Below, piece by piece: positions 1,236-23,470 of a stretch of DNA of 26,958 nt (its first letter is position 1; each line of letters starts with the position of its first letter). A program made the position numbers and the translations under genes. The DNA is from Planctomycetota bacterium (GTDB lineage Bacteria > Planctomycetota > J058), in contig JAWLGW010000001.1 in assembly GCA_041690735.1 (NCBI GenBank), forward strand, positions 1 to 26,958, read 5' to 3'. The notes under the pieces are model-generated. The model had not been told where the DNA came from. It saw only the letters and a list, made by a program, of their open reading frames with translations, and searched no databases.

Positions 1236-1999
1236 GCTTCGGCCCCGACCGCGACGACGACCGCGAGGACGAGGACGGGCCTCCTCCCTGGGAGGCCGAG
1301 TCCTGCCGCCTCTTCGCGGGGCGGATCTGCGCGCGGCACGTCGGCCTCGACCGCCTGCAGCAGGCGCTCGTGAACCATCCCCACACCCCGGGCGAGGCGG
1401 CCGACCGGTGGGTCATGCGGCTGGGTCGAGCGCGCCGACAGCGCCCGCCGACCGTGCGCGAGGAGGCGATCGAGCCCCCCGAGCGGATCGCCACCGCCAT
1501 GCGCCGCTGCCAGAAGCCCTTCCAGCTGTGGAACGTGAACCGCGTCCAGCAGACCGAGCCCTACGCCCTCGAGCCGGGGCCCGAGCTGAAGCTGGGCGGC
1601 GCCGCCGACCTGCCCGAGGAGCTGCGCGTGCCCCGGCGCGTCGAGAAGGCGACGACGGCGCTCAAGGAGTGGGTCGAGGATCAGGAGTTCGAGGCCATGC
1701 TGCGCAAGGGCGACGCGCGGCGCCTCAAGCAGGCGCTGCGCGAGCCGCTCCCCTTCGGCAAGCCCGACCCCAAGGGGGACGGCGTCCCCGGGGGAAAGCC
1801 GGCGCGGCCGCCCGCTGTCGGCGGGTTCGGCGGGTTCGGCGGCTTCGGCGGGCCGCCGGGACCGGGGCCGGGGCAGGGCTTCCCCGGCTTCGGCGCGCCC
1901 CCGCCGCCGACGCCGGGGCCCCCGGGCGGCTTCCCCGGCTTCGGCGCGCCGGGCGGCTTCCCCGGATTCGGCGGCCTCGGGAACCCCGACGACGACTGA
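1232..1999 (+). CDS. Hypothetical protein (255 aa) with C-terminal Gly/Phe/Pro low-complexity tail
   Basis: GTG at 1232 overlaps the mutS2 stop (GTGA). Strong GC3 bias from 1232 onward. The N-terminal part of track ORF 635..1999 is a shadow of mutS2. Confidence 0.75.
   Translation: MSFGPDRDDDREDEDGPPPWEAESCRLFAGRICARHVGLDRLQQALVNHPHTPGEAADRWVMRLGRARRQRPPTVREEAIEPPERIATAMRRCQKPFQLWNVNRVQQTEPYALEPGPELKLGGAADLPEELRVPRRVEKATTALKEWVEDQEFEAMLRKGDARRLKQALREPLPFGKPDPKGDGVPGGKPARPPAVGGFGGFGGFGGPPGPGPGQGFPGFGAPPPPTPGPPGGFPGFGAPGGFPGFGGLGNPDDD
1820..1981 (+). repeat. Coding repeats GGF x3 and GFPGFG x3
   Basis: ggcttccccggcttcggcgcgcc at 1877-1899 and 1928-1950; variant ggcttccccggattcggc at 1955-1972. 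Confidence 0.9.
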
Positions 2000-2007
2000 C
2001 GTCCTCC

Positions 2008-2016
2008 TGCTACAGT
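2008..2016 (+). promoter_or_regulatory. Putative extended -10 promoter (TG-C-TACAGT)
   Basis: TGnTAnnnT in the intergenic gap about 40 nt upstream of the GTG at 2059; AT-rich hexamers are rare in this background. Confidence 0.4.
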
Positions 2017-2058
2017 TAGCCCTGCGCGCCCGAAGGCCAGGGGCGCGAGGGAGGGACC

Positions 2059-2637
2059 GTGGAGCCGAGCGAGCTGGAGGACGCCCGGGGGACGCTCGAG
2101 CAGGTGGAGCGCCGGCTGCGGCGCGACATCGCCGACATGGTCGGGGTGCTGGAGGCCGACGTGCCCGCCTTCGTGGGGCGCAGCGTGCGGCGCACCTTCG
2201 AGCAGGCGCCCGAGGCGGACCGCGTCGACGACGCGGCGGTCAAGCGGCTCAAGGAGGACACCACGCGGCTGGGCCAGGAGCTCGCCGCCGAGGTGGCCCG
2301 CGAGCTGGCGGGGTTCGAGGTGTGGACCTGGGAGGCGGGCTGGACCCTGCCGAGCGAGCCGCCCGAGGACCTCGACGCCCATCCGCGGGTCAGCGAGGTG
2401 CTGAGTCGGGTGGGGGCCGCCGTGCGGGAGCTCCTCGAGCGGCACGGGCTGCCGGCTCCGGCCGAGGCGACGCACTACCGGCTGCCGGCCTACTTCGTGG
2501 CGGGGCACTTCATGAAGAGCCTCGTCGCCAACTACTGGCGCGCCCTCGCCGACCACGAGGCCCTGCGGCGCGCGCTGGCGGAGGCGGACCAGCGCGAGGC
2601 CCGCGAGGCCCGCGCGGCTCGGTGGGACCGGGCCTAG
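2059..2637 (+). CDS. Hypothetical alpha-helical protein (192 aa)
   Basis: SD-like GGAGGGA upstream of GTG, strong GC3 bias, coiled-coil-like termini; no family recognised. Confidence 0.75.
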   Translation: MEPSELEDARGTLEQVERRLRRDIADMVGVLEADVPAFVGRSVRRTFEQAPEADRVDDAAVKRLKEDTTRLGQELAAEVARELAGFEVWTWEAGWTLPSEPPEDLDAHPRVSEVLSRVGAAVRELLERHGLPAPAEATHYRLPAYFVAGHFMKSLVANYWRALADHEALRRALAEADQREAREARAARWDRA

Positions 2638-2645
2638 GGTCGCTG

Positions 2646-2651
2646 TATACT
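2646..2651 (+). promoter_or_regulatory. Putative sigma70 -10 hexamer TATACT
   Basis: Intergenic TATACT upstream of SD GGAGGG and TTG 2672; no good -35. Confidence 0.45.
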
Positions 2652-2671
2652 TCCCGGACAGGAGGGACACC

Positions 2672-3352
2672 TTGGCGGACGGAGATCAGCTGGGTTACGC
2701 GGAGGGGATCCTGGAGCAGCTCCGGGCCTCGTACGAGCAGATGAGCCGCGAGCAGCTGCTCGACCTGGTGTGCCACCTCCAGAAGAGCTACGTCCTCGAC
2801 CAGACGATCCCGTTCGACTTCCCCCTCCCCGAGCGGGCGGAGGAGCTGCGGGCCGACCGCCCCGACGCCCCCGACGCCGAGGAGGACGACCCCGCCGACC
2901 CCCCCGAGGTGCGCTTCGGCCGCCTGATCGAGGGGCTCAAGCGCCGCACCGGGCTGCCGCAGTTCTCGGGCTTCGCCCTGGAGGAGGGGCGCGCGGTGCT
3001 GGTGGTCGACAACCAGAAGGTGACCTTCGGCGAGCGGGTGACGGTGGAGTTCGTGCCGCTGCGCCAGCCCCCGCGGAGCGCCCCGGCGTCGGCGCCCTCC
3101 GCGCCCGAGCCGGCGGCGGCGGCGCCCCCGCCGCCGAGCGCGCCGGCCGCCCGCCCGGCGCCCGCCCCGTCGCGGCCCGGCCCGGCCCGCCCCGCCCCGG
3201 CCCGCCCCGCCCCGAGCCGACCTGCCCCGAGCCGTCCCGGCCCGAGTCGGCCTGGCCCGAGCCGACCGGCTGCCGCCCGTCCGGCGGAGCCGCCCGCCGA
3301 GGGCGACTACGACGCCGGCGCGGAGCGCTTCCGCCGGCTGGACCTCGACTGA
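2672..3352 (+). CDS. Hypothetical protein (226 aa): globular N-terminus, Pro/Ala/Arg linker, C-terminal RFRRLDLD motif
   Basis: SD GGAGGG before TTG, strong GC3 bias, lies directly upstream of the AAA+ gene. Confidence 0.75.
   Translation: MADGDQLGYAEGILEQLRASYEQMSREQLLDLVCHLQKSYVLDQTIPFDFPLPERAEELRADRPDAPDAEEDDPADPPEVRFGRLIEGLKRRTGLPQFSGFALEEGRAVLVVDNQKVTFGERVTVEFVPLRQPPRSAPASAPSAPEPAAAAPPPPSAPAARPAPAPSRPGPARPAPARPAPSRPAPSRPGPSRPGPSRPAAARPAEPPAEGDYDAGAERFRRLDLD
3167..3286 (+). repeat. Eight 15-nt tandem coding repeats, P(S/A)RP(A/G)
   Basis: PSRPG PARPA PARPA PSRPA PSRPG PSRPG PSRPA AARPA read directly from the sequence; synonymous sites have diverged. Confidence 0.9.
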
Positions 3353-3435: not shown

Positions 3436-5028
3436 ATGACGACCGAGGCCGCCCCCCAGCCGCAGACGGACGCTCCCGTGTTCGAGGGCGGCGCCGTCCG
3501 CACCACCAGCGAGGAGCAGATCAAGTTCCTGATCAAGGCCCGCTACCCGCTGATCTACGTGATCTCGCCCGAGGAGGAGCGCGTGGAGCGGATCCTCCAG
3601 CGGGTGGCGAACGACACCAAGAGCAAGGTGATCTGGTGGTCGATCACCCAGGGCTTCTCCGCCCAGGGCGGCGCCGACGTGAAGGAGCCGATCGCGGCCC
3701 TCAACTACATGATCGACGCCAAGGAGACGGCGATCTTCGTGCTCCGTGACTTCCACGAGTACATGAAGAACCACGCCGTGAAGCGGCGCCTGCGCGACCT
3801 GGCCCGGGAGTTCCGCACCTCCTCCAAGAACTGCGTCCTGCTGTCGCCGGTGCAGGCGATCCCCCAGGAGATCGAGAAGGAGTTCGCGGTCGTCGACTTC
3901 GACCTGCCCAAGATCGAGGACATCTACCGGATCATGAACCGGCTGCTGACCGGGATCACCCCCGAGTCGCGAGCCTACGCCTGGAAGAGCCAGTTCCAGC
4001 AGGACGAGGCGGAGAAGCTCAAGGTCGCCGAGGCGGCCCTCGGCCTGACCGAGGTGGAGATCGAGAACGTCCTCGCCAAGTCGCTGGTGCAGGTGCGGCG
4101 GTTCGACATCGATATCATTCACTCCGAGAAGGAGCAGATCATCCGCAAGAGCGGCACCCTCGACTTCATGCACACCGACGCCTCCTTCGGCGGCGTGGGC
4201 GGCCTGGAGCTCATGAAGGACTGGCTGCGCAAGCGCGCCAAGGCCTTCTCCCACGAGGCCCGCGAGTTCGGCCTCCCCGAGCCGCGCGGGATCCTCATGC
4301 TCGGCATTCCGGGCTGCGGCAAGTCGCTCATGGCCAAGGCGGTCGCCTCCCTGTGGCGCCTGCCCCTGATCCGCCTCGACATCGGCAAGGTCATGGGCTC
4401 GCTGGTCGGCTCCTCCGAGGAGGGGATCCGCCGGGCGATCAAGACCGCCGAGTCGGTGGCCCCCTGCATCCTGTGGCTGGACGAGCTGGAGAAGGGGCTG
4501 TCGGGCACCCAGAGCTCGGGGCAGTCGGACGGCGGCACCACGGCCCGCGTGTTCGGCACGTTCATCACCTGGCTGCAGGAGAAGGACTCGCCGGTGTTCG
4601 TGATCGGCACCGCCAACAACGTCAAGCAGCTCCCCCCCGAGCTGCTGCGCAAGGGCCGCTTCGACGAGATCTTCTTCGTGGACCTGCCCAGCCGCGAGGA
4701 GCGGCGGGCGATCGTCGAGATCCACATCAAGCGCCGCCGCCGCGACCCCGCCAACTTCGACATCGACGCCCTGGTCGACGCCACCGACGGCTTCTCGGGC
4801 TCCGAGATCGAGCAGGTGGTGATCTCCGCCCTGTACGACGCCTTCGACAAGGACGAGGAGATCAACGACGAGTACCTGCTGCAGGGCGTCGAGGAGACGG
4901 TCCCCCTGTCGCGCACCATGCAGGAGGAGATCGCCTCCATGCGCGACTGGGCCAAGAGCCGCGCCCGCCTGGCCAGCCGGGCGGTGGAGCTCGAGGACCG
5001 CGACGCCGTGCGCAAGATCGACATCTGA
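3436..5028 (+). CDS. ycf46: Ycf46/SpoVK-type AAA+ ATPase (degenerate N-terminal AAA module plus active C-terminal module)
   Basis: N-terminal IKARYPLIYV..EEERV and IFVLRDFH; Walker A GIPGCGKS, Walker B ILWLDELEKG, TAN sensor, PPELLRKGRFDEIFFVDLP; followed by DUF1257- and DUF2997-like genes. Confidence 0.92.
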   Translation: MTTEAAPQPQTDAPVFEGGAVRTTSEEQIKFLIKARYPLIYVISPEEERVERILQRVANDTKSKVIWWSITQGFSAQGGADVKEPIAALNYMIDAKETAIFVLRDFHEYMKNHAVKRRLRDLAREFRTSSKNCVLLSPVQAIPQEIEKEFAVVDFDLPKIEDIYRIMNRLLTGITPESRAYAWKSQFQQDEAEKLKVAEAALGLTEVEIENVLAKSLVQVRRFDIDIIHSEKEQIIRKSGTLDFMHTDASFGGVGGLELMKDWLRKRAKAFSHEAREFGLPEPRGILMLGIPGCGKSLMAKAVASLWRLPLIRLDIGKVMGSLVGSSEEGIRRAIKTAESVAPCILWLDELEKGLSGTQSSGQSDGGTTARVFGTFITWLQEKDSPVFVIGTANNVKQLPPELLRKGRFDEIFFVDLPSREERRAIVEIHIKRRRRDPANFDIDALVDATDGFSGSEIEQVVISALYDAFDKDEEINDEYLLQGVEETVPLSRTMQEEIASMRDWAKSRARLASRAVELEDRDAVRKIDI

Positions 5029-16468: not shown

Positions 16469-18496
16469 CTACCCTTCGCCCTCCGCCTGCGTCGTCTTCT
16501 CCGCCGCCAGCAGCTCCTCCAGCGCCGGGAGCGCAGTCTGGTCGGGGTCCTTCAGGTCGAACCGTCGTCCGCCCTCGCTGGGGCCCACCTCGATCCGATC
16601 CCAGCCGGCGCGCACCCGCTTGGCGCGCTCGCCCAGCCGGCCCAGCCGAGCGATCGCCAGGCCGCGCAGGCGGGCGCGGGTGGTCTGGGGCGGCTCGCTG
16701 CGGGCGCGCTGCACCCCGGCCGGGTCGAGGAGCCGGGCCACTCGCCCCTCCTGCTCCAGCCAGTCGTAGTAGCCCCCCTCCGCCGACAGCTCGTGGTACT
16801 TGAGGTCGACGACCTTGAGCCGCAGCCAGGCGGCGCGCACCGCGGGCAGCTCCGCCCAGTCGAGCTCCGCCTGCGCGGCCGCGCGCCGGGCGCGGCCGAA
16901 GCGCGCCCGCCCCAGCGCCGTGCGCAGGCGGGCGGCGACCGCCTCGGCGGGGGCGCCCGGCGGAGGCAGGGGCGCCTCCGGGGCGTGGCGTTCGAGGAGC
17001 GCGTTGATCGGCCCCCAGGCCCGCAGGGCGCTCCAGGCCTGCTCGGGCGTGCGCGCGGGCAGGGCGTCTTGCAGGGTGGCCCGCAGCAGGTCGAGCTTGA
17101 TCGCCCAGTCGAGCTCCCGAGCGAGGGAGGCGGGCTCCTCCTGCACCCGGCGCAGGGCGTCGTCCCAGCGGCGCAGGGCGTCCACCAGCTCGGCGGGCCA
17201 GTCGCCGTCGGCGCGGGCCCGGGCCCAGGTGGCCTCGAGGTAGCGCCGCTGCACCCCCGCCGCCGTGAGGGTCTCGCCGGTGGCGCGGTCGATGGCGACC
17301 GTCGCCTGCAGCGACAGGTCGGCGCAGGTGCGGCGGAAGGCGGCCAGGGGACCGTCCACCAGCTCGATCCGCGCGACCAGGCCGTCGAGGGCGCCGGCCT
17401 CGAGGGCCTCGAGCACCGCGGCGGTGGCGCCCAGCTTGAGGAGCGCCGAGGCCTCGGCCCGGTTGGCGTCGCCGCACAGCAGCTGCAGCCGCTTGCGCGG
17501 CGCCCGGTAGGCGAACAGGCGCTGGAAGAAGAACTCCTTGAGGTCGACCAGCGGCCGGGTGGGGCCGTACACGAAGGCCGCCGCCACCCGATCGGTGATC
17601 CGCCCCCGGGCCGACAGCTCGAACCGCCCCTCGGCGGTGAGGTGGCCCGCGCCGCACAGGAGCGGGCGCGTCACCAGGAACGGGACCAGCGCCGGCAGGT
17701 GCCCGGTGAACAGCACCTCGCGGGCGGTCAGGCTGAACCCCCAGGCGAGGGCCCGGAACAGCACCAGGAACAGGCGGGCCACGGCCCCCTGGCCCGGGAG
17801 CGGCCCCGGCTGACCGAGGTACTGGCCCGCGCCCACCAGGGCGCGCTGCGCGAGGCGCGCCAGGGCGCCCAGCAGCGGGAGCGGTGAGAGCACCTCGAGC
17901 AGGCCGTACGCCAGGGCCGCGACCCGCACCACCCCCACCACCGGCGCCGAGATCACCAGCAGGACCGCCAGGCCCAGGGCCAGGACCAGCGGGTGGAGGA
18001 GGTAGGCGAACAGGGCCCGGCGCAGGCCGCCGGGCCGCTCCTGCACCGAGTACGACTCGTGGCAGCCGTAGGCGTTCCCCGCCCGGTCCACGTTGTTCTT
18101 GAGCAGGAACACCTGCCCCGGGCGTCCCTCGCCCGCGAAGGCCGCGCTGGCGTCGGCCGCGGCCTCGCGCAGCAGCTCCTCCTGGGCGCGCCCCACGCAG
18201 GCCAGCTCGACGGCGCCGCGGCACTCGGGCGTGGCCCACTCCAGCAGCCCCACCTCGAGGTCGGCGAGCTGCGACAGCTCGAAGTGGATCAGCGAGCCGT
18301 CGCCGAGGAAGTCGCCTTCCTTGTAGTACAGGGCCTCGCAGGAGGGGAGCCGGCGGCGGAGGGCCTCCACCACGGCCTCGAACAGCTCCTTCTGGGTGGG
18401 CGAGGCGCCGCCCGGCTCGCGCGGCGTGAAGCCGAGGGCGTACTCGGTCTCGACGCCCTGAATGCGGAGGAGGCGGGCTGGCGCGGGCGAGGTCGT
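16469..18496 (-). CDS. PafA/Dop (Pup-ligase/deamidase) family protein, PafA-like, with a hydrophobic membrane insertion; probable non-canonical start
   Basis: RIQGVETEY, EWATPEC, LKNNVDRAGNAYGCHESY, LVPFLVTRPLLCGAG, RLQLLCGDAN..E....LKLGAT..VL, LDWAIK, VDLKYHEL, PPQTTRARLRG, KDP. The frame is open to a TGA at 18536-18538, but the first canonical start (GTG 18376/18373) lies after the GVETEY motif; ACG at 18496 is proposed. Confidence 0.88.
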   Translation of the reverse strand, partial: TTSPAPARLLRIQGVETEYALGFTPREPGGASPTQKELFEAVVEALRRRLPSCEALYYKEGDFLGDGSLIHFELSQLADLEVGLLEWATPECRGAVELACVGRAQEELLREAAADASAAFAGEGRPGQVFLLKNNVDRAGNAYGCHESYSVQERPGGLRRALFAYLLHPLVLALGLAVLLVISAPVVGVVRVAALAYGLLEVLSPLPLLGALARLAQRALVGAGQYLGQPGPLPGQGAVARLFLVLFRALAWGFSLTAREVLFTGHLPALVPFLVTRPLLCGAGHLTAEGRFELSARGRITDRVAAAFVYGPTRPLVDLKEFFFQRLFAYRAPRKRLQLLCGDANRAEASALLKLGATAAVLEALEAGALDGLVARIELVDGPLAAFRRTCADLSLQATVAIDRATGETLTAAGVQRRYLEATWARARADGDWPAELVDALRRWDDALRRVQEEPASLARELDWAIKLDLLRATLQDALPARTPEQAWSALRAWGPINALLERHAPEAPLPPPGAPAEAVAARLRTALGRARFGRARRAAAQAELDWAELPAVRAAWLRLKVVDLKYHELSAEGGYYDWLEQEGRVARLLDPAGVQRARSEPPQTTRARLRGLAIARLGRLGERAKRVRAGWDRIEVGPSEGGRRFDLKDPDQTALPALEELLAAEKTTQAEGEG

Positions 18497-18512: not shown

Positions 18513-18917
18513 CTACTCGCCGCCGCCGGGGGTGGTCAGGCTCAGCACGCCCTGGGCGCCGGGCAGGCGGGTCGAGGCGACCGCGCGGGCCACGGCGGGA
18601 TCGGCGGGCGCCAGCGCGGGGGCCGCCTCGGCCCCGGGGGCGACCGGAGCCGGCGCGGCCGGGGCGCCGATCCCCGGCTGGGGCGCACTCCGCAGGGCGG
18701 CCGCGACCGCCAGCGCGAGCAGCGCGGCGGCGCCCGTCGCCGCCACCAGGGGCTCGCTGGTAGCGCCCTCCAGCAGGGCGCTCGAGACGCGGGACAGGGA
18801 GTGCTGCAGGACCTCGAAGCCGTAGTTCATGGCCGCCTCGTTGCCGACGCCGCGGAGGACCTCGGAGGAGTCGTCGGTGGACGGTCTTAACGTGGCAGCG
18901 TCCTCCGTCTCCTGCAA
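18513..18917 (-). CDS. Small Ala/Pro-rich protein with one hydrophobic segment and C-terminal GGGE; candidate Pup-like modifier
   Basis: Strong GC3 bias; start TTG 18917 (SD GGAGG) or ATG 18830 (SD GAGG); ends ...LSLTTPGGGE-stop, 16 nt before the proposed PafA-like start. Modifier role is inference. Confidence 0.65.
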   Translation of the reverse strand: MQETEDAATLRPSTDDSSEVLRGVGNEAAMNYGFEVLQHSLSRVSSALLEGATSEPLVAATGAAALLALAVAAALRSAPQPGIGAPAAPAPVAPGAEAAPALAPADPAVARAVASTRLPGAQGVLSLTTPGGGE

Positions 18918-18980
18918 CCCTCCTCCGGGCCCGCGGTCGCGAGGGGGCGAGGCGGCCTCGTCGGGGGCGGCTGCAATTCC

Positions 18981-18986
18981 TATACT
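18981..18986 (+). promoter_or_regulatory. Putative -10 hexamer TATACT for the sigma54 activator gene
   Basis: Divergent intergenic region, 32 nt upstream of GTG 19019. Confidence 0.45.
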
Positions 18987-19018
18987 CCCAACGGGCTAAC
19001 ACCAAGCCGAGGCTGCCA

Positions 19019-21331
<2,313 letters not shown>

Positions 21332-22711: not shown

Positions 22712-23470
22712 TCAGGCCCGGCCGCGCCGCCCTCGCGCCTTGCGCTCCTGGCAGCCGGCGATCGAGCAGCCGGCGCCCTCCTCGAAGCAGCTCGGGTGGT
22801 GGGGCGCGTCGCAGGCCGCGCAGTGAACGACGGGCGCGGCGTCGCTGAGGGCGTCGTGGCAGAAGGGGCACCGCAGGCCGGCGGGGGAGCGAGGGGCGGC
22901 GGCGAGGGGCGGCGCCGCCGCGGTCGGCGCGCCCTCGCGGGCCCGGACCCGCACCGGCACCGCGGGCGCCCAGGCGAGCTCCACCAGCGCCACCGCCAGG
23001 GCGCGGAGGCGCGCGACGTCGAGCCCCACCAGCCCGCGCGCCACGAGCTGGCCGTGGCGCACCTCGAGGCGCTCGAGGTCGAACCGGCGGGTCAGCTCCT
23101 GCGCGTGGGCCTGCCACCCCTCCGAGCTCGGCGAGAAGCGTAGGCCGCCGCCGAAGAGGCGCCCCAGCAGCCCCCGCGACAGGAGCAGGTGGAGGTCGCC
23201 CGAGGCTCGGCAGCGCACCTCGACCCGGCCGCGGCCGAGCCAGATCAGCTCCACGTCGCGCCCCTCGTGGTGGCCTAGCACCCGCGGCTTGCGGAACCAG
23301 GGCTTGCGGAAGGTGCCCTCCAGGGCGTGGGCGACCCGGAGCAGCGTCCCGCTGACCTCCTCGCGGCGGGAGCGGCGACGGCGGTCGTCGGTATCCGTGG
23401 CCGCGTTGGCGGCGCCCAGGGCGAGCACCTCGCCCAGGAAGCCCAGCAGCTCGCCGATCAAGAGGAGCAT
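22712..23470 (-). CDS. Prokaryotic RING-finger (Prok-RING_1-like) protein, paralog 1
   Basis: C-terminal C-x2-C-x12-C-x2-C-x3-HH-x2-C-x6-C-x4-C (22751-22870); hydrophobic N-terminus. Confidence 0.75.
   Translation of the reverse strand: MLLLIGELLGFLGEVLALGAANAATDTDDRRRRSRREEVSGTLLRVAHALEGTFRKPWFRKPRVLGHHEGRDVELIWLGRGRVEVRCRASGDLHLLLSRGLLGRLFGGGLRFSPSSEGWQAHAQELTRRFDLERLEVRHGQLVARGLVGLDVARLRALAVALVELAWAPAVPVRVRAREGAPTAAAPPLAAAPRSPAGLRCPFCHDALSDAAPVVHCAACDAPHHPSCFEEGAGCSIAGCQERKARGRRGRA

Follow-up and report, generated by a model that had tools for sequence, protein, structure and literature searches.

The stretch of DNA analysed here (the window: 26,958 nucleotides, positions 1 to 26,958 of contig JAWLGW010000001.1 in assembly GCA_041690735.1, from a Planctomycetota bacterium) encodes a ligase of the Pup-ligase family, to which PafA and Dop belong, whose catalytic domain is interrupted by a 121-residue insertion containing a long hydrophobic stretch. 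The insertion probably anchors the enzyme to the membrane at its cytoplasmic face, a reading that fits its hydropathy, its charge distribution, its conservation pattern and its presence throughout the family. The 121-residue segment would then be a lineage-specific membrane-anchoring module, spliced in just after the His-Glu-Ser-Tyr strand of the active site. Residue numbers such as 142–262 for the insertion are those of the extended protein read from position 18472; those given for the motifs GCHESY and LVPFLVTR are those of the gene call, which begins with the GTG at 18373 and runs over 16469..18373 on the minus strand (634 aa).

An earlier reading of these letters (the original prediction) had counted 120 residues, encoded by 17690..18049, between GCHESY (residues 103–108) and LVPFLVTR (from residue 229), against a spacing of about 15 in PafA and Dop. 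Both figures hold, and the three hydrophobic strings quoted as lying in between are all present. The insertion starts one residue past HESY and ends at PFLVTR. When the protein was compared with solved structures by phmmer, query residues 45–110 aligned with Dop 99–160 and residues 221–434 with Dop 165–374; in the family profile, positions 2–143 aligned with residues 11–136 of C. glutamicum PafA and positions 259–467 with residues 146–360. At this point the ligase is therefore longer than PafA and Dop by about 106 residues. Nitrospira and Vicinamibacterales homologues, which do not carry the insertion, have 14–16 residues between the same two motifs. The inserted segment is coding rather than the product of a frame artefact, since its G+C content at third codon positions (GC3) is 0.98 in frame. 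Among 5.8 billion proteins searched, 37 relatives were recovered (42–69% identity, mostly 636–681 aa), two of them named as coming from Planctomycetota metagenome-assembled genomes. The segment measures 117–122 aa in every one of the 30 relatives that were aligned, and likewise in all 32 clade members examined, so that none of these close homologues lacks it; because its length is nearly constant in 32 members from independent assemblies, it results neither from chance nor from misassembly.

The insertion can be divided into several parts (Table 1). A short, charged, Arg-rich stretch (residues 148–153) follows HESY and leads into a 48-residue hydrophobic stretch that is nearly free of charge: its mean Kyte–Doolittle hydropathy (KD) is about 2.05, and each of its halves contains approximately 0.5 Lys and Arg and less than 0.4 Asp and Glu, as opposed to 2.6–2.7 Lys and Arg in each flank. 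Uncharged stretches of 43–58 residues are found in most clade members. The highest KD value over 19 residues is 2.68 in the window insertion and ranges from 2.0 to 3.4 across members, compared to 1.1–1.3 in homologues devoid of the insertion. Three features of the stretch recur at the level of single residues, namely a nearly invariant His160-Pro161 pair, the central Pro177 (25 of 30 sequences) and Pro199 (22 of 30); in distant members, an Arg or a Lys stands beside the central proline. Otherwise, the most frequent residue at a position has a frequency of 0.45–0.49 in the stretch, versus 0.64 in the rest of the protein, with hydrophobicity being retained, which is the pattern expected of lipid-facing helices. 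Downstream lie two amphipathic helices, B and C, separated by a Pro/Gly loop; the loop and helix C are better conserved (top-residue frequency 0.57–0.67), and helix C runs on into a His-Leu-Pro-Ala-Leu segment alignable to both PafA and Dop. On the Eisenberg scale, the mean hydrophobicity and the hydrophobic moment (muH) are 0.66–0.68 and 0.13–0.15 for the two halves of residues 154–201, 0.13 and 0.45 for helix B, and 0.41 and 0.44 for helix C. By these values, both halves of the stretch are predicted to be of the membrane-helix type, and helices B and C of the surface-helix type.

The protein that carries the insertion is a member of the Pfam family Pup_ligase (PF03136), which it matches with 246.9 bits for a cut-off of 25; in a whole-genome profile scan, Pfam positions 1–359 were found at 17069–18466 with 193.3 bits, in a frame that is open over 688 codons. 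Its scores with the NCBIfam equivalog models stay far below the respective cut-offs, both for PafA (TIGR03686, 203.1 bits for a cut-off of 551.3) and for Dop (TIGR03688, 159.8 bits for a cut-off of 492.3). The structure predicted by AlphaFold2 (AF2) from an alignment of 30 sequences has a mean predicted local distance difference test score (pLDDT) of 92.6 and a predicted template-modelling score of 0.91. When this model was compared with the PDB by Foldseek, Dop and PafA ranked at the top (E-values of 1e-24 to 1e-15), with template-modelling (TM) scores by target of 0.71–0.82; the predicted structure is that of the PafA/Dop fold, i.e. the glutamine-synthetase fold shared by these carboxylate–amine ligases. 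A 653-residue AlphaFold DB entry named Depupylase matches the entire model, with a TM score of 0.83 and 23% identity.

At the position of the catalytic aspartate of PafA, the ligase has Glu65, the glutamate of a His-Phe-Glu motif, followed by a 7-residue insertion relative to PafA. The glutamate is invariant, as all 30 clade sequences aligned have it, and so do the distant insertion-bearing members seen, while Nitrospira homologues keep the aspartate; judging from the alignments, the clade as a whole shares this conservative substitution. The N-terminal nucleotide/Mg motif of the family (GxExE) reads GVETE and is encoded in frame at 18443–18457 (minus strand), but it is preceded in frame by no ATG, GTG or TTG codon back to the stop at 18536–18538. 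Where homologues mostly have an ATG, the window reads CTC and its closest relative CTG, with an in-frame ATT two codons later. Because the first ATG, GTG or TTG thus comes only after a conserved motif, the gene caller probably truncated the ligases of both the window and this relative, and the true start codon is uncertain.

From the sequence, we infer that residues 154–201, framed by Arg clusters on both flanks, lie within the cytoplasmic membrane. Both ends of the insertion should be cytoplasmic, because the fold puts them on the same side and because the catalytic domain needs ATP; this is in agreement with the presence of Arg clusters on either flank. The stretch could then adopt one of two arrangements: (a) a tight two-helix hairpin turning at the conserved Pro177, or (b) a slab lying in the plane of the membrane, in which the long helix would be sunk into the inner leaflet and helices B and C would have their Arg-rich faces level with the head groups. 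In support of the former, Monne, Nilsson and von Heijne reportedly found in 1999 that a 40-residue hydrophobic stretch with a central proline forms a helical hairpin. The latter is suggested by the AF2 model, in which the helices of the insertion (residues 150–195, 202–220 and 230–253) all have pLDDT values of about 90 and in which, as deduced from the helix lengths, the insertion would form an arm with a length of about 70 Å and a thickness of two helices, in which the long helix runs outward and helices B and C run back. In both cases, helices B and C and the Pro/Gly loop would lead back to the catalytic domain, which would be kept in the cytoplasm, where ATP is available.

Several results weigh against membrane anchoring or against a ligase acting there: (i) AF2 renders residues 150–195 as a single continuous 46-residue helix without a hairpin, whether the whole protein or the isolated insertion is modelled; (ii) a crude sum of Hessa-type insertion energies, which we treat as weak evidence, gave only one clearly favourable 19-residue window per sequence, often straddling the central proline; (iii) the catalytic aspartate of PafA is replaced by glutamate in the clade; (iv) the N-terminal Mg/ATP motif is not preceded by a canonical start codon in the window copy, whose activity and expression are therefore putative. 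The first two points tell more particularly against arrangement (a), as the AF2 helix shows no break at Pro177 and the energy sum does not single out a second window. Note that AlphaFold does not model a membrane. Altogether, the membrane-embedded ligase of the original prediction is favoured by hydropathy, charge, conservation and a proposal made in 2008 for Pup ligases with a transmembrane insertion (PMC2588565), whereas the continuous, hairpin-free helix of the AF2 model speaks against this sequence-based reading.

The main alternative is that the insertion is a soluble oligomerisation arm, with the long helices of several protomers buried together in a bundle, helices B and C covering them from outside and the enzyme in the cytosol. 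AF2 twice produced a straight 46-residue helix on which two helices pack back, as in helical bundles; moreover, the amphipathic helices B and C have charged outer faces, and other enzymes with the glutamine-synthetase fold are oligomeric (the Foldseek matches include glutamine synthetase decamers). We nevertheless consider this arrangement unlikely. The uncharged stretches of most members are of a kind seldom seen in soluble proteins; the stretch retains its hydrophobicity but little residue identity, whereas identity is usually conserved in protein–protein cores; and the segments of distant members are even more membrane-like. In addition, PafA and Dop act as monomers.

A second alternative, which appears highly improbable, would make the insertion an acceptor-binding arm bringing the active site up to the bilayer; the small protein ending in Gly-Gly-Gly-Glu encoded upstream of the ligase (hereafter the GGGE protein) would be joined either to a lipid amine, for example that of phosphatidylethanolamine, or to lysines in loops of membrane proteins recognised by the arm. 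The insertion does begin right after the active-site HESY strand, its Pro/Gly loop and helix C are conserved beyond the needs of a mere anchor, and the fold joins carboxylates to varied amines, as established for glutamine synthetase and gamma-glutamylcysteine ligases (PMC2588565). In our model of the complex between the ligase and the GGGE protein, however, the insertion makes no confident contact with either the modifier or the active site, and the gene neighbourhoods that we compared contain no conserved lipid-related genes. Finally, we rejected the idea, to which we give next to no credence, that the insertion is an assembly, frame or annotation artefact or that the ligase gene is a decaying pseudogene: the genome bin behind the window is indeed fragmented, with 1192 contigs and 84% completeness, and no canonical start codon stands ahead of the N-terminal motif, but the 688-codon open frame has a GC3 of 0.97–0.98, and the same insertion, with the same length, is found in 32 sequences and in all 10 related species genomes, so that both family-wide conservation and in-frame codon bias contradict it.

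Table 1. Position of the ligase, its insertions and the neighbouring genes in the window
Feature	Coordinates	Strand	Basis
Pup-ligase-family (PafA/Dop-like) gene	16469..18472	-	PF03136 match, genome scan, AF2 model
121-residue insertion (residues 142–262), between the HESY strand and the PFLVTR helix	17687..18049	-	Dop/PafA alignments
48-residue, nearly charge-free hydrophobic stretch (154–201), proposed membrane part	17870..18013	-	KD, charge, Eisenberg values
Helix B, amphipathic, Arg/Lys-rich (202–221)	17810..17869	-	muH; 2.7 Lys+Arg per sequence; AF2 helix 202–220
Pro/Gly loop, consensus E-P-G-P-x-P-G-S-G (approximately 221–229), Gly229 invariant	17786..17809	-	Alignment
Helix C, amphipathic (230–256), conserved Arg233, Arg240 and Arg251	17705..17785	-	AF2 helix 230–253
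His-Phe-Glu, Glu at the position of the PafA catalytic Asp	18278..18286	-	LYLD in 4b0t and LYLN in the D-to-N mutant 4bjr, by profile alignment
Second insertion, approximately 72–82 aa (468–549), helical, soluble	16826..17071	-	Unmatched versus Dop
Small ORF ending in Gly-Gly-Gly-Glu, presumed Pup-like modifier	18513..18830	-	GC3 of 0.95 in frame; tail; position
TPR-GAF-sigma54 activator with a winged-helix tail, divergent from the GGGE–ligase pair	19019..21331	+	Conserved neighbour

The distribution of the insertion is narrow and coherent. Within the class to which the window belongs, it is present in all 10 of the other species genomes of the same family and in one of the two genomes of a second family, once in each; these related genomes contain a single Pup-ligase gene, and no second ligase paralogue was found in them. 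In a scan of species genomes, the long form of the ligase was recovered only from Planctomycetota bins, the next relatives (25–32% identity) being short genes from Nitrospirota, and 18 of the 401 species sampled in the phylum gave a detectable match, a figure that is a lower bound. The same architecture recurs in distant members, one of them named Planctomycetales. In a maximum-likelihood tree built without the insertion columns, all 32 carriers fall on one side of a branch with a Shimodaira–Hasegawa-like approximate likelihood ratio (SH-aLRT) support of 98, so that a single change suffices to account for it; the tree included only 9 sequences without the insertion, none of them actinobacterial. 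The insertion thus apparently has a single origin. When 1.84 billion cluster representatives were searched with a profile restricted to the insertion, 10 matches were obtained, of which 8 are members of this clade or fragments thereof, indicating that the module is private to the clade. A derivation from another protein family was considered and rejected, the remaining two matches being unrelated repeat proteins matched in pieces.

The GGGE protein, which we presume to be a Pup-like modifier, consists of 105 residues if translated from the ATG codon and of up to 134 residues if translated from the TTG codon at 18917. In 10 of 14 related loci, the ligase gene is immediately preceded by an ORF whose product ends in GGGE or GGAE and which stops 40–250 nt before it; the terminus is GGGE in nine of the 10 aligned small proteins and GGAE in the tenth. 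No such ORF was found beside the ligase in the four other loci (L005, L012, L016 and L031). In L012, whose ligase belongs to a subclade with the active-site motif Gly-Thr-His-Glu-Ser-Tyr, a TPR gene (1–1333) overlaps the start of the ligase gene (1330–3255) by 4 nt. The last 30 residues of the GGGE proteins are conserved, whereas the remainder is not, and the proteins fall into two size classes that follow the ligase subclades: short, soluble forms of 51–63 aa without a hydrophobic segment, and long forms of 94–117 aa (6 of 10) that combine an Ala/Leu-rich hydrophobic segment with a Pro/Ala-rich linker. The protein of the window has such an Ala/Leu-rich segment, with a maximum KD of 2.33. Pfam and NCBIfam scans with E-values up to 10 gave no match to Pup or UBact, three GGGE proteins yielded no meaningful family, and the genome of the window contains no match to PF05639 (Pup).

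We built a model of the complex between the ligase and the GGGE protein, which scored 0.85, compared to 0.00 for the best control; 58 of 80 solved complexes attained this mark, as did 2 of 110 mismatched pairs. The runs share at least 67% of their contacts, and the pLDDT of the partner is at least 57. Two parts of the GGGE protein contact the ligase in the model: (i) the tail (residues 98–105), which sits in the active site, with ligase residues 10–16, 65–76 and 122–138; (ii) residues 66–96, with ligase residues 448–481 and 550–577. The second contact region includes the edges (residues 468–470 and 475–481) of the second insertion of the ligase. This clade-specific insertion precedes the C-terminal domain and corresponds to query residues 435–517, unmatched between Dop 374 and 385; it is also present in the Vicinamibacterales homologue L033, which is without the hydrophobic insertion. 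The model thus supports the notion that the GGGE protein binds in the groove of the ligase. Note that, because the PafA–Pup complex has already been solved, the high score may reflect likeness to that complex rather than provide independent evidence. The ligase would accommodate about 40 C-terminal residues of the GGGE protein in the Pup groove, activate the terminal glutamate with ATP and attach it to amino groups on proteins in or near the membrane; this conjugation would proceed without a proteasome.

The original prediction had further matched the hydrophobic insertion of the ligase with the hydrophobic segment of the GGGE protein. This match holds in part: the GGGE ORF is conserved upstream of the ligase, but the hydrophobic segment is confined to the long forms, ligases paired with short modifiers carry the same insertion, and neither segment is among the confident contacts of the complex model. 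Since short modifiers have no such segment, the link cannot be general and must be regarded as a conjecture. It is conceivable, though doubtful, that in the subclade of the window the modifier is itself anchored to the membrane by its Ala/Leu-rich segment; by joining the cytoplasmic GGGE tail to lysines of its targets, the membrane-bound ligase would then tether them covalently to the membrane, for sequestration or scaffolding, instead of marking them for degradation. If this were true, bacteria would have an equivalent of the ubiquitin-like tags that are anchored by lipids.

Nearly all that is understood about pupylation comes from actinobacteria, in which it supplies a proteasome. We found no match to the proteasome family PF00227 in the window's own genome (84% complete); each of 10 relatives has a single PF00227 match, and the one that was examined is HslV, adjoining HslU. 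The Mpa equivalog appears to have no representative either, as pup_AAA reached its cut-off in none of 11 genomes, and no proteasome genes occur in the ligase neighbourhoods that were compared. The conserved neighbour is instead the sigma54 activator listed in Table 1, which has the same architecture and the same position in six further loci (L003, L004, L007, L009, L010 and L013), i.e. in seven in all. No convincing sigma54 -24/-12 match was found ahead of the GGGE gene (18830–19019), and matches to the -24/-12 consensus are no commoner in the window than in shuffled sequences.

Insertions of this kind were already predicted by Iyer, Burroughs and Aravind in 2008 (Biol Direct 3:45, PMC2588565), who described Pup ligases with a transmembrane insertion in Rhodopirellula baltica and Plesiocystis pacifica and proposed that it anchors the enzyme at the cytoplasmic face for the modification of membrane-associated proteins. 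They are hence not new to science, and the window ligase appears to belong to this predicted kind, the Rhodopirellula and Plesiocystis proteins having been compared here through their description. The likeness extends to (i) a planctomycete ligase; (ii) a hydrophobic insertion placed immediately after the core strand with the active-site His-Glu; (iii) an adjacent small gene whose product ends in G-[EQ]; (iv) the separation from proteasome genes, to which neither Pup nor its ligase is linked in Plesiocystis and Rhodopirellula (PMC2588565). The two descriptions differ in other respects. The 2008 paper reports four transmembrane segments (PMC2588565), whereas our ligase has four helical elements only if the long helix is counted twice, and of these only residues 154–176 and 178–201 are membrane-like, helices B and C being amphipathic and Arg-rich. 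Likewise, the linked "membrane protein gene" of that paper (PMC2588565) was not recognised here, the conserved neighbour being the sigma54 activator. In the literature searched, we found no experimental study of membrane-anchored or planctomycete Pup ligases.

Compared to PafA (4b0t, 4bjr), the window ligase belongs to the same Pfam family and has the same fold, shares the HE-x-Y and PFL-x-TR motifs and, in its open frame, GxExE, is colinear in the N-terminal region, where both are devoid of the Dop loop, and is modelled with the tail of its modifier in the same active-site cradle. It differs from PafA by its two large insertions (approximately 106 and 72 aa), by the glutamate that replaces the catalytic aspartate and by the company it keeps, as no proteasome, Mpa or Dop partner was found with ligases of this type. 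Dop (4b0r, 7oxv) is its best match, both structurally (TM score by target of 0.82) and by profile (232 bits); the Dop loop is nevertheless absent, the N-terminal part aligning end-to-end with PafA and only piecewise with Dop, and the modifier of the window already ends in Glu, so that no deamidation would be needed. As for the modifier, it resembles Pup and UBact, which are small, disordered proteins ending in GG-[EQ], in being a small protein encoded beside the ligase, in having a C-terminal Gly-Gly-Glu and in the 30 residues preceding the tail, which are conserved and are modelled in the groove of the ligase. It differs from them in its GGGE terminus and in matching neither the Pfam Pup model nor any NCBIfam model; furthermore, the Ala/Leu-rich hydrophobic segment of the long forms is not known from Pup.

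Beyond the 2008 proposal, the present analysis brings the fixed length of about 121 aa and the apparent single origin of the insertion, the separation of its helical parts into two membrane-like halves and a pair of amphipathic helices, the change of the catalytic aspartate to glutamate, the two modifier classes, the conserved regulator and the model of the ligase–modifier complex. The clade thus looks like a stand-alone variant of pupylation that brings together a ligase likely to be membrane-associated, a GGGE-tailed protein and a sigma54 regulator, for which no proteasome, Mpa or depupylase was found, and which all species sampled in one planctomycete family have retained. Proximity labelling at the membrane could be a further use for a Pup-type ligase bound there, in the way that PafA is used in the PUP-IT method.

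Two other genes of the window deserve mention. The first, located 12 kb from the ligase (3436–5028, plus strand) and not present in the related loci examined, encodes an AAA+ ATPase of 530 aa whose 285-residue N-terminal part is without any match and whose ATPase module resembles CDC48, PAN and FtsH (about 100 bits, far below all cut-offs). The second, only a few genes away from the ligase (22712–23470, minus strand), encodes a Prok-RING finger protein; it stands beside an acyl-CoA dehydrogenase gene and is syntenic in the closest relative (L003, 1725–2465).

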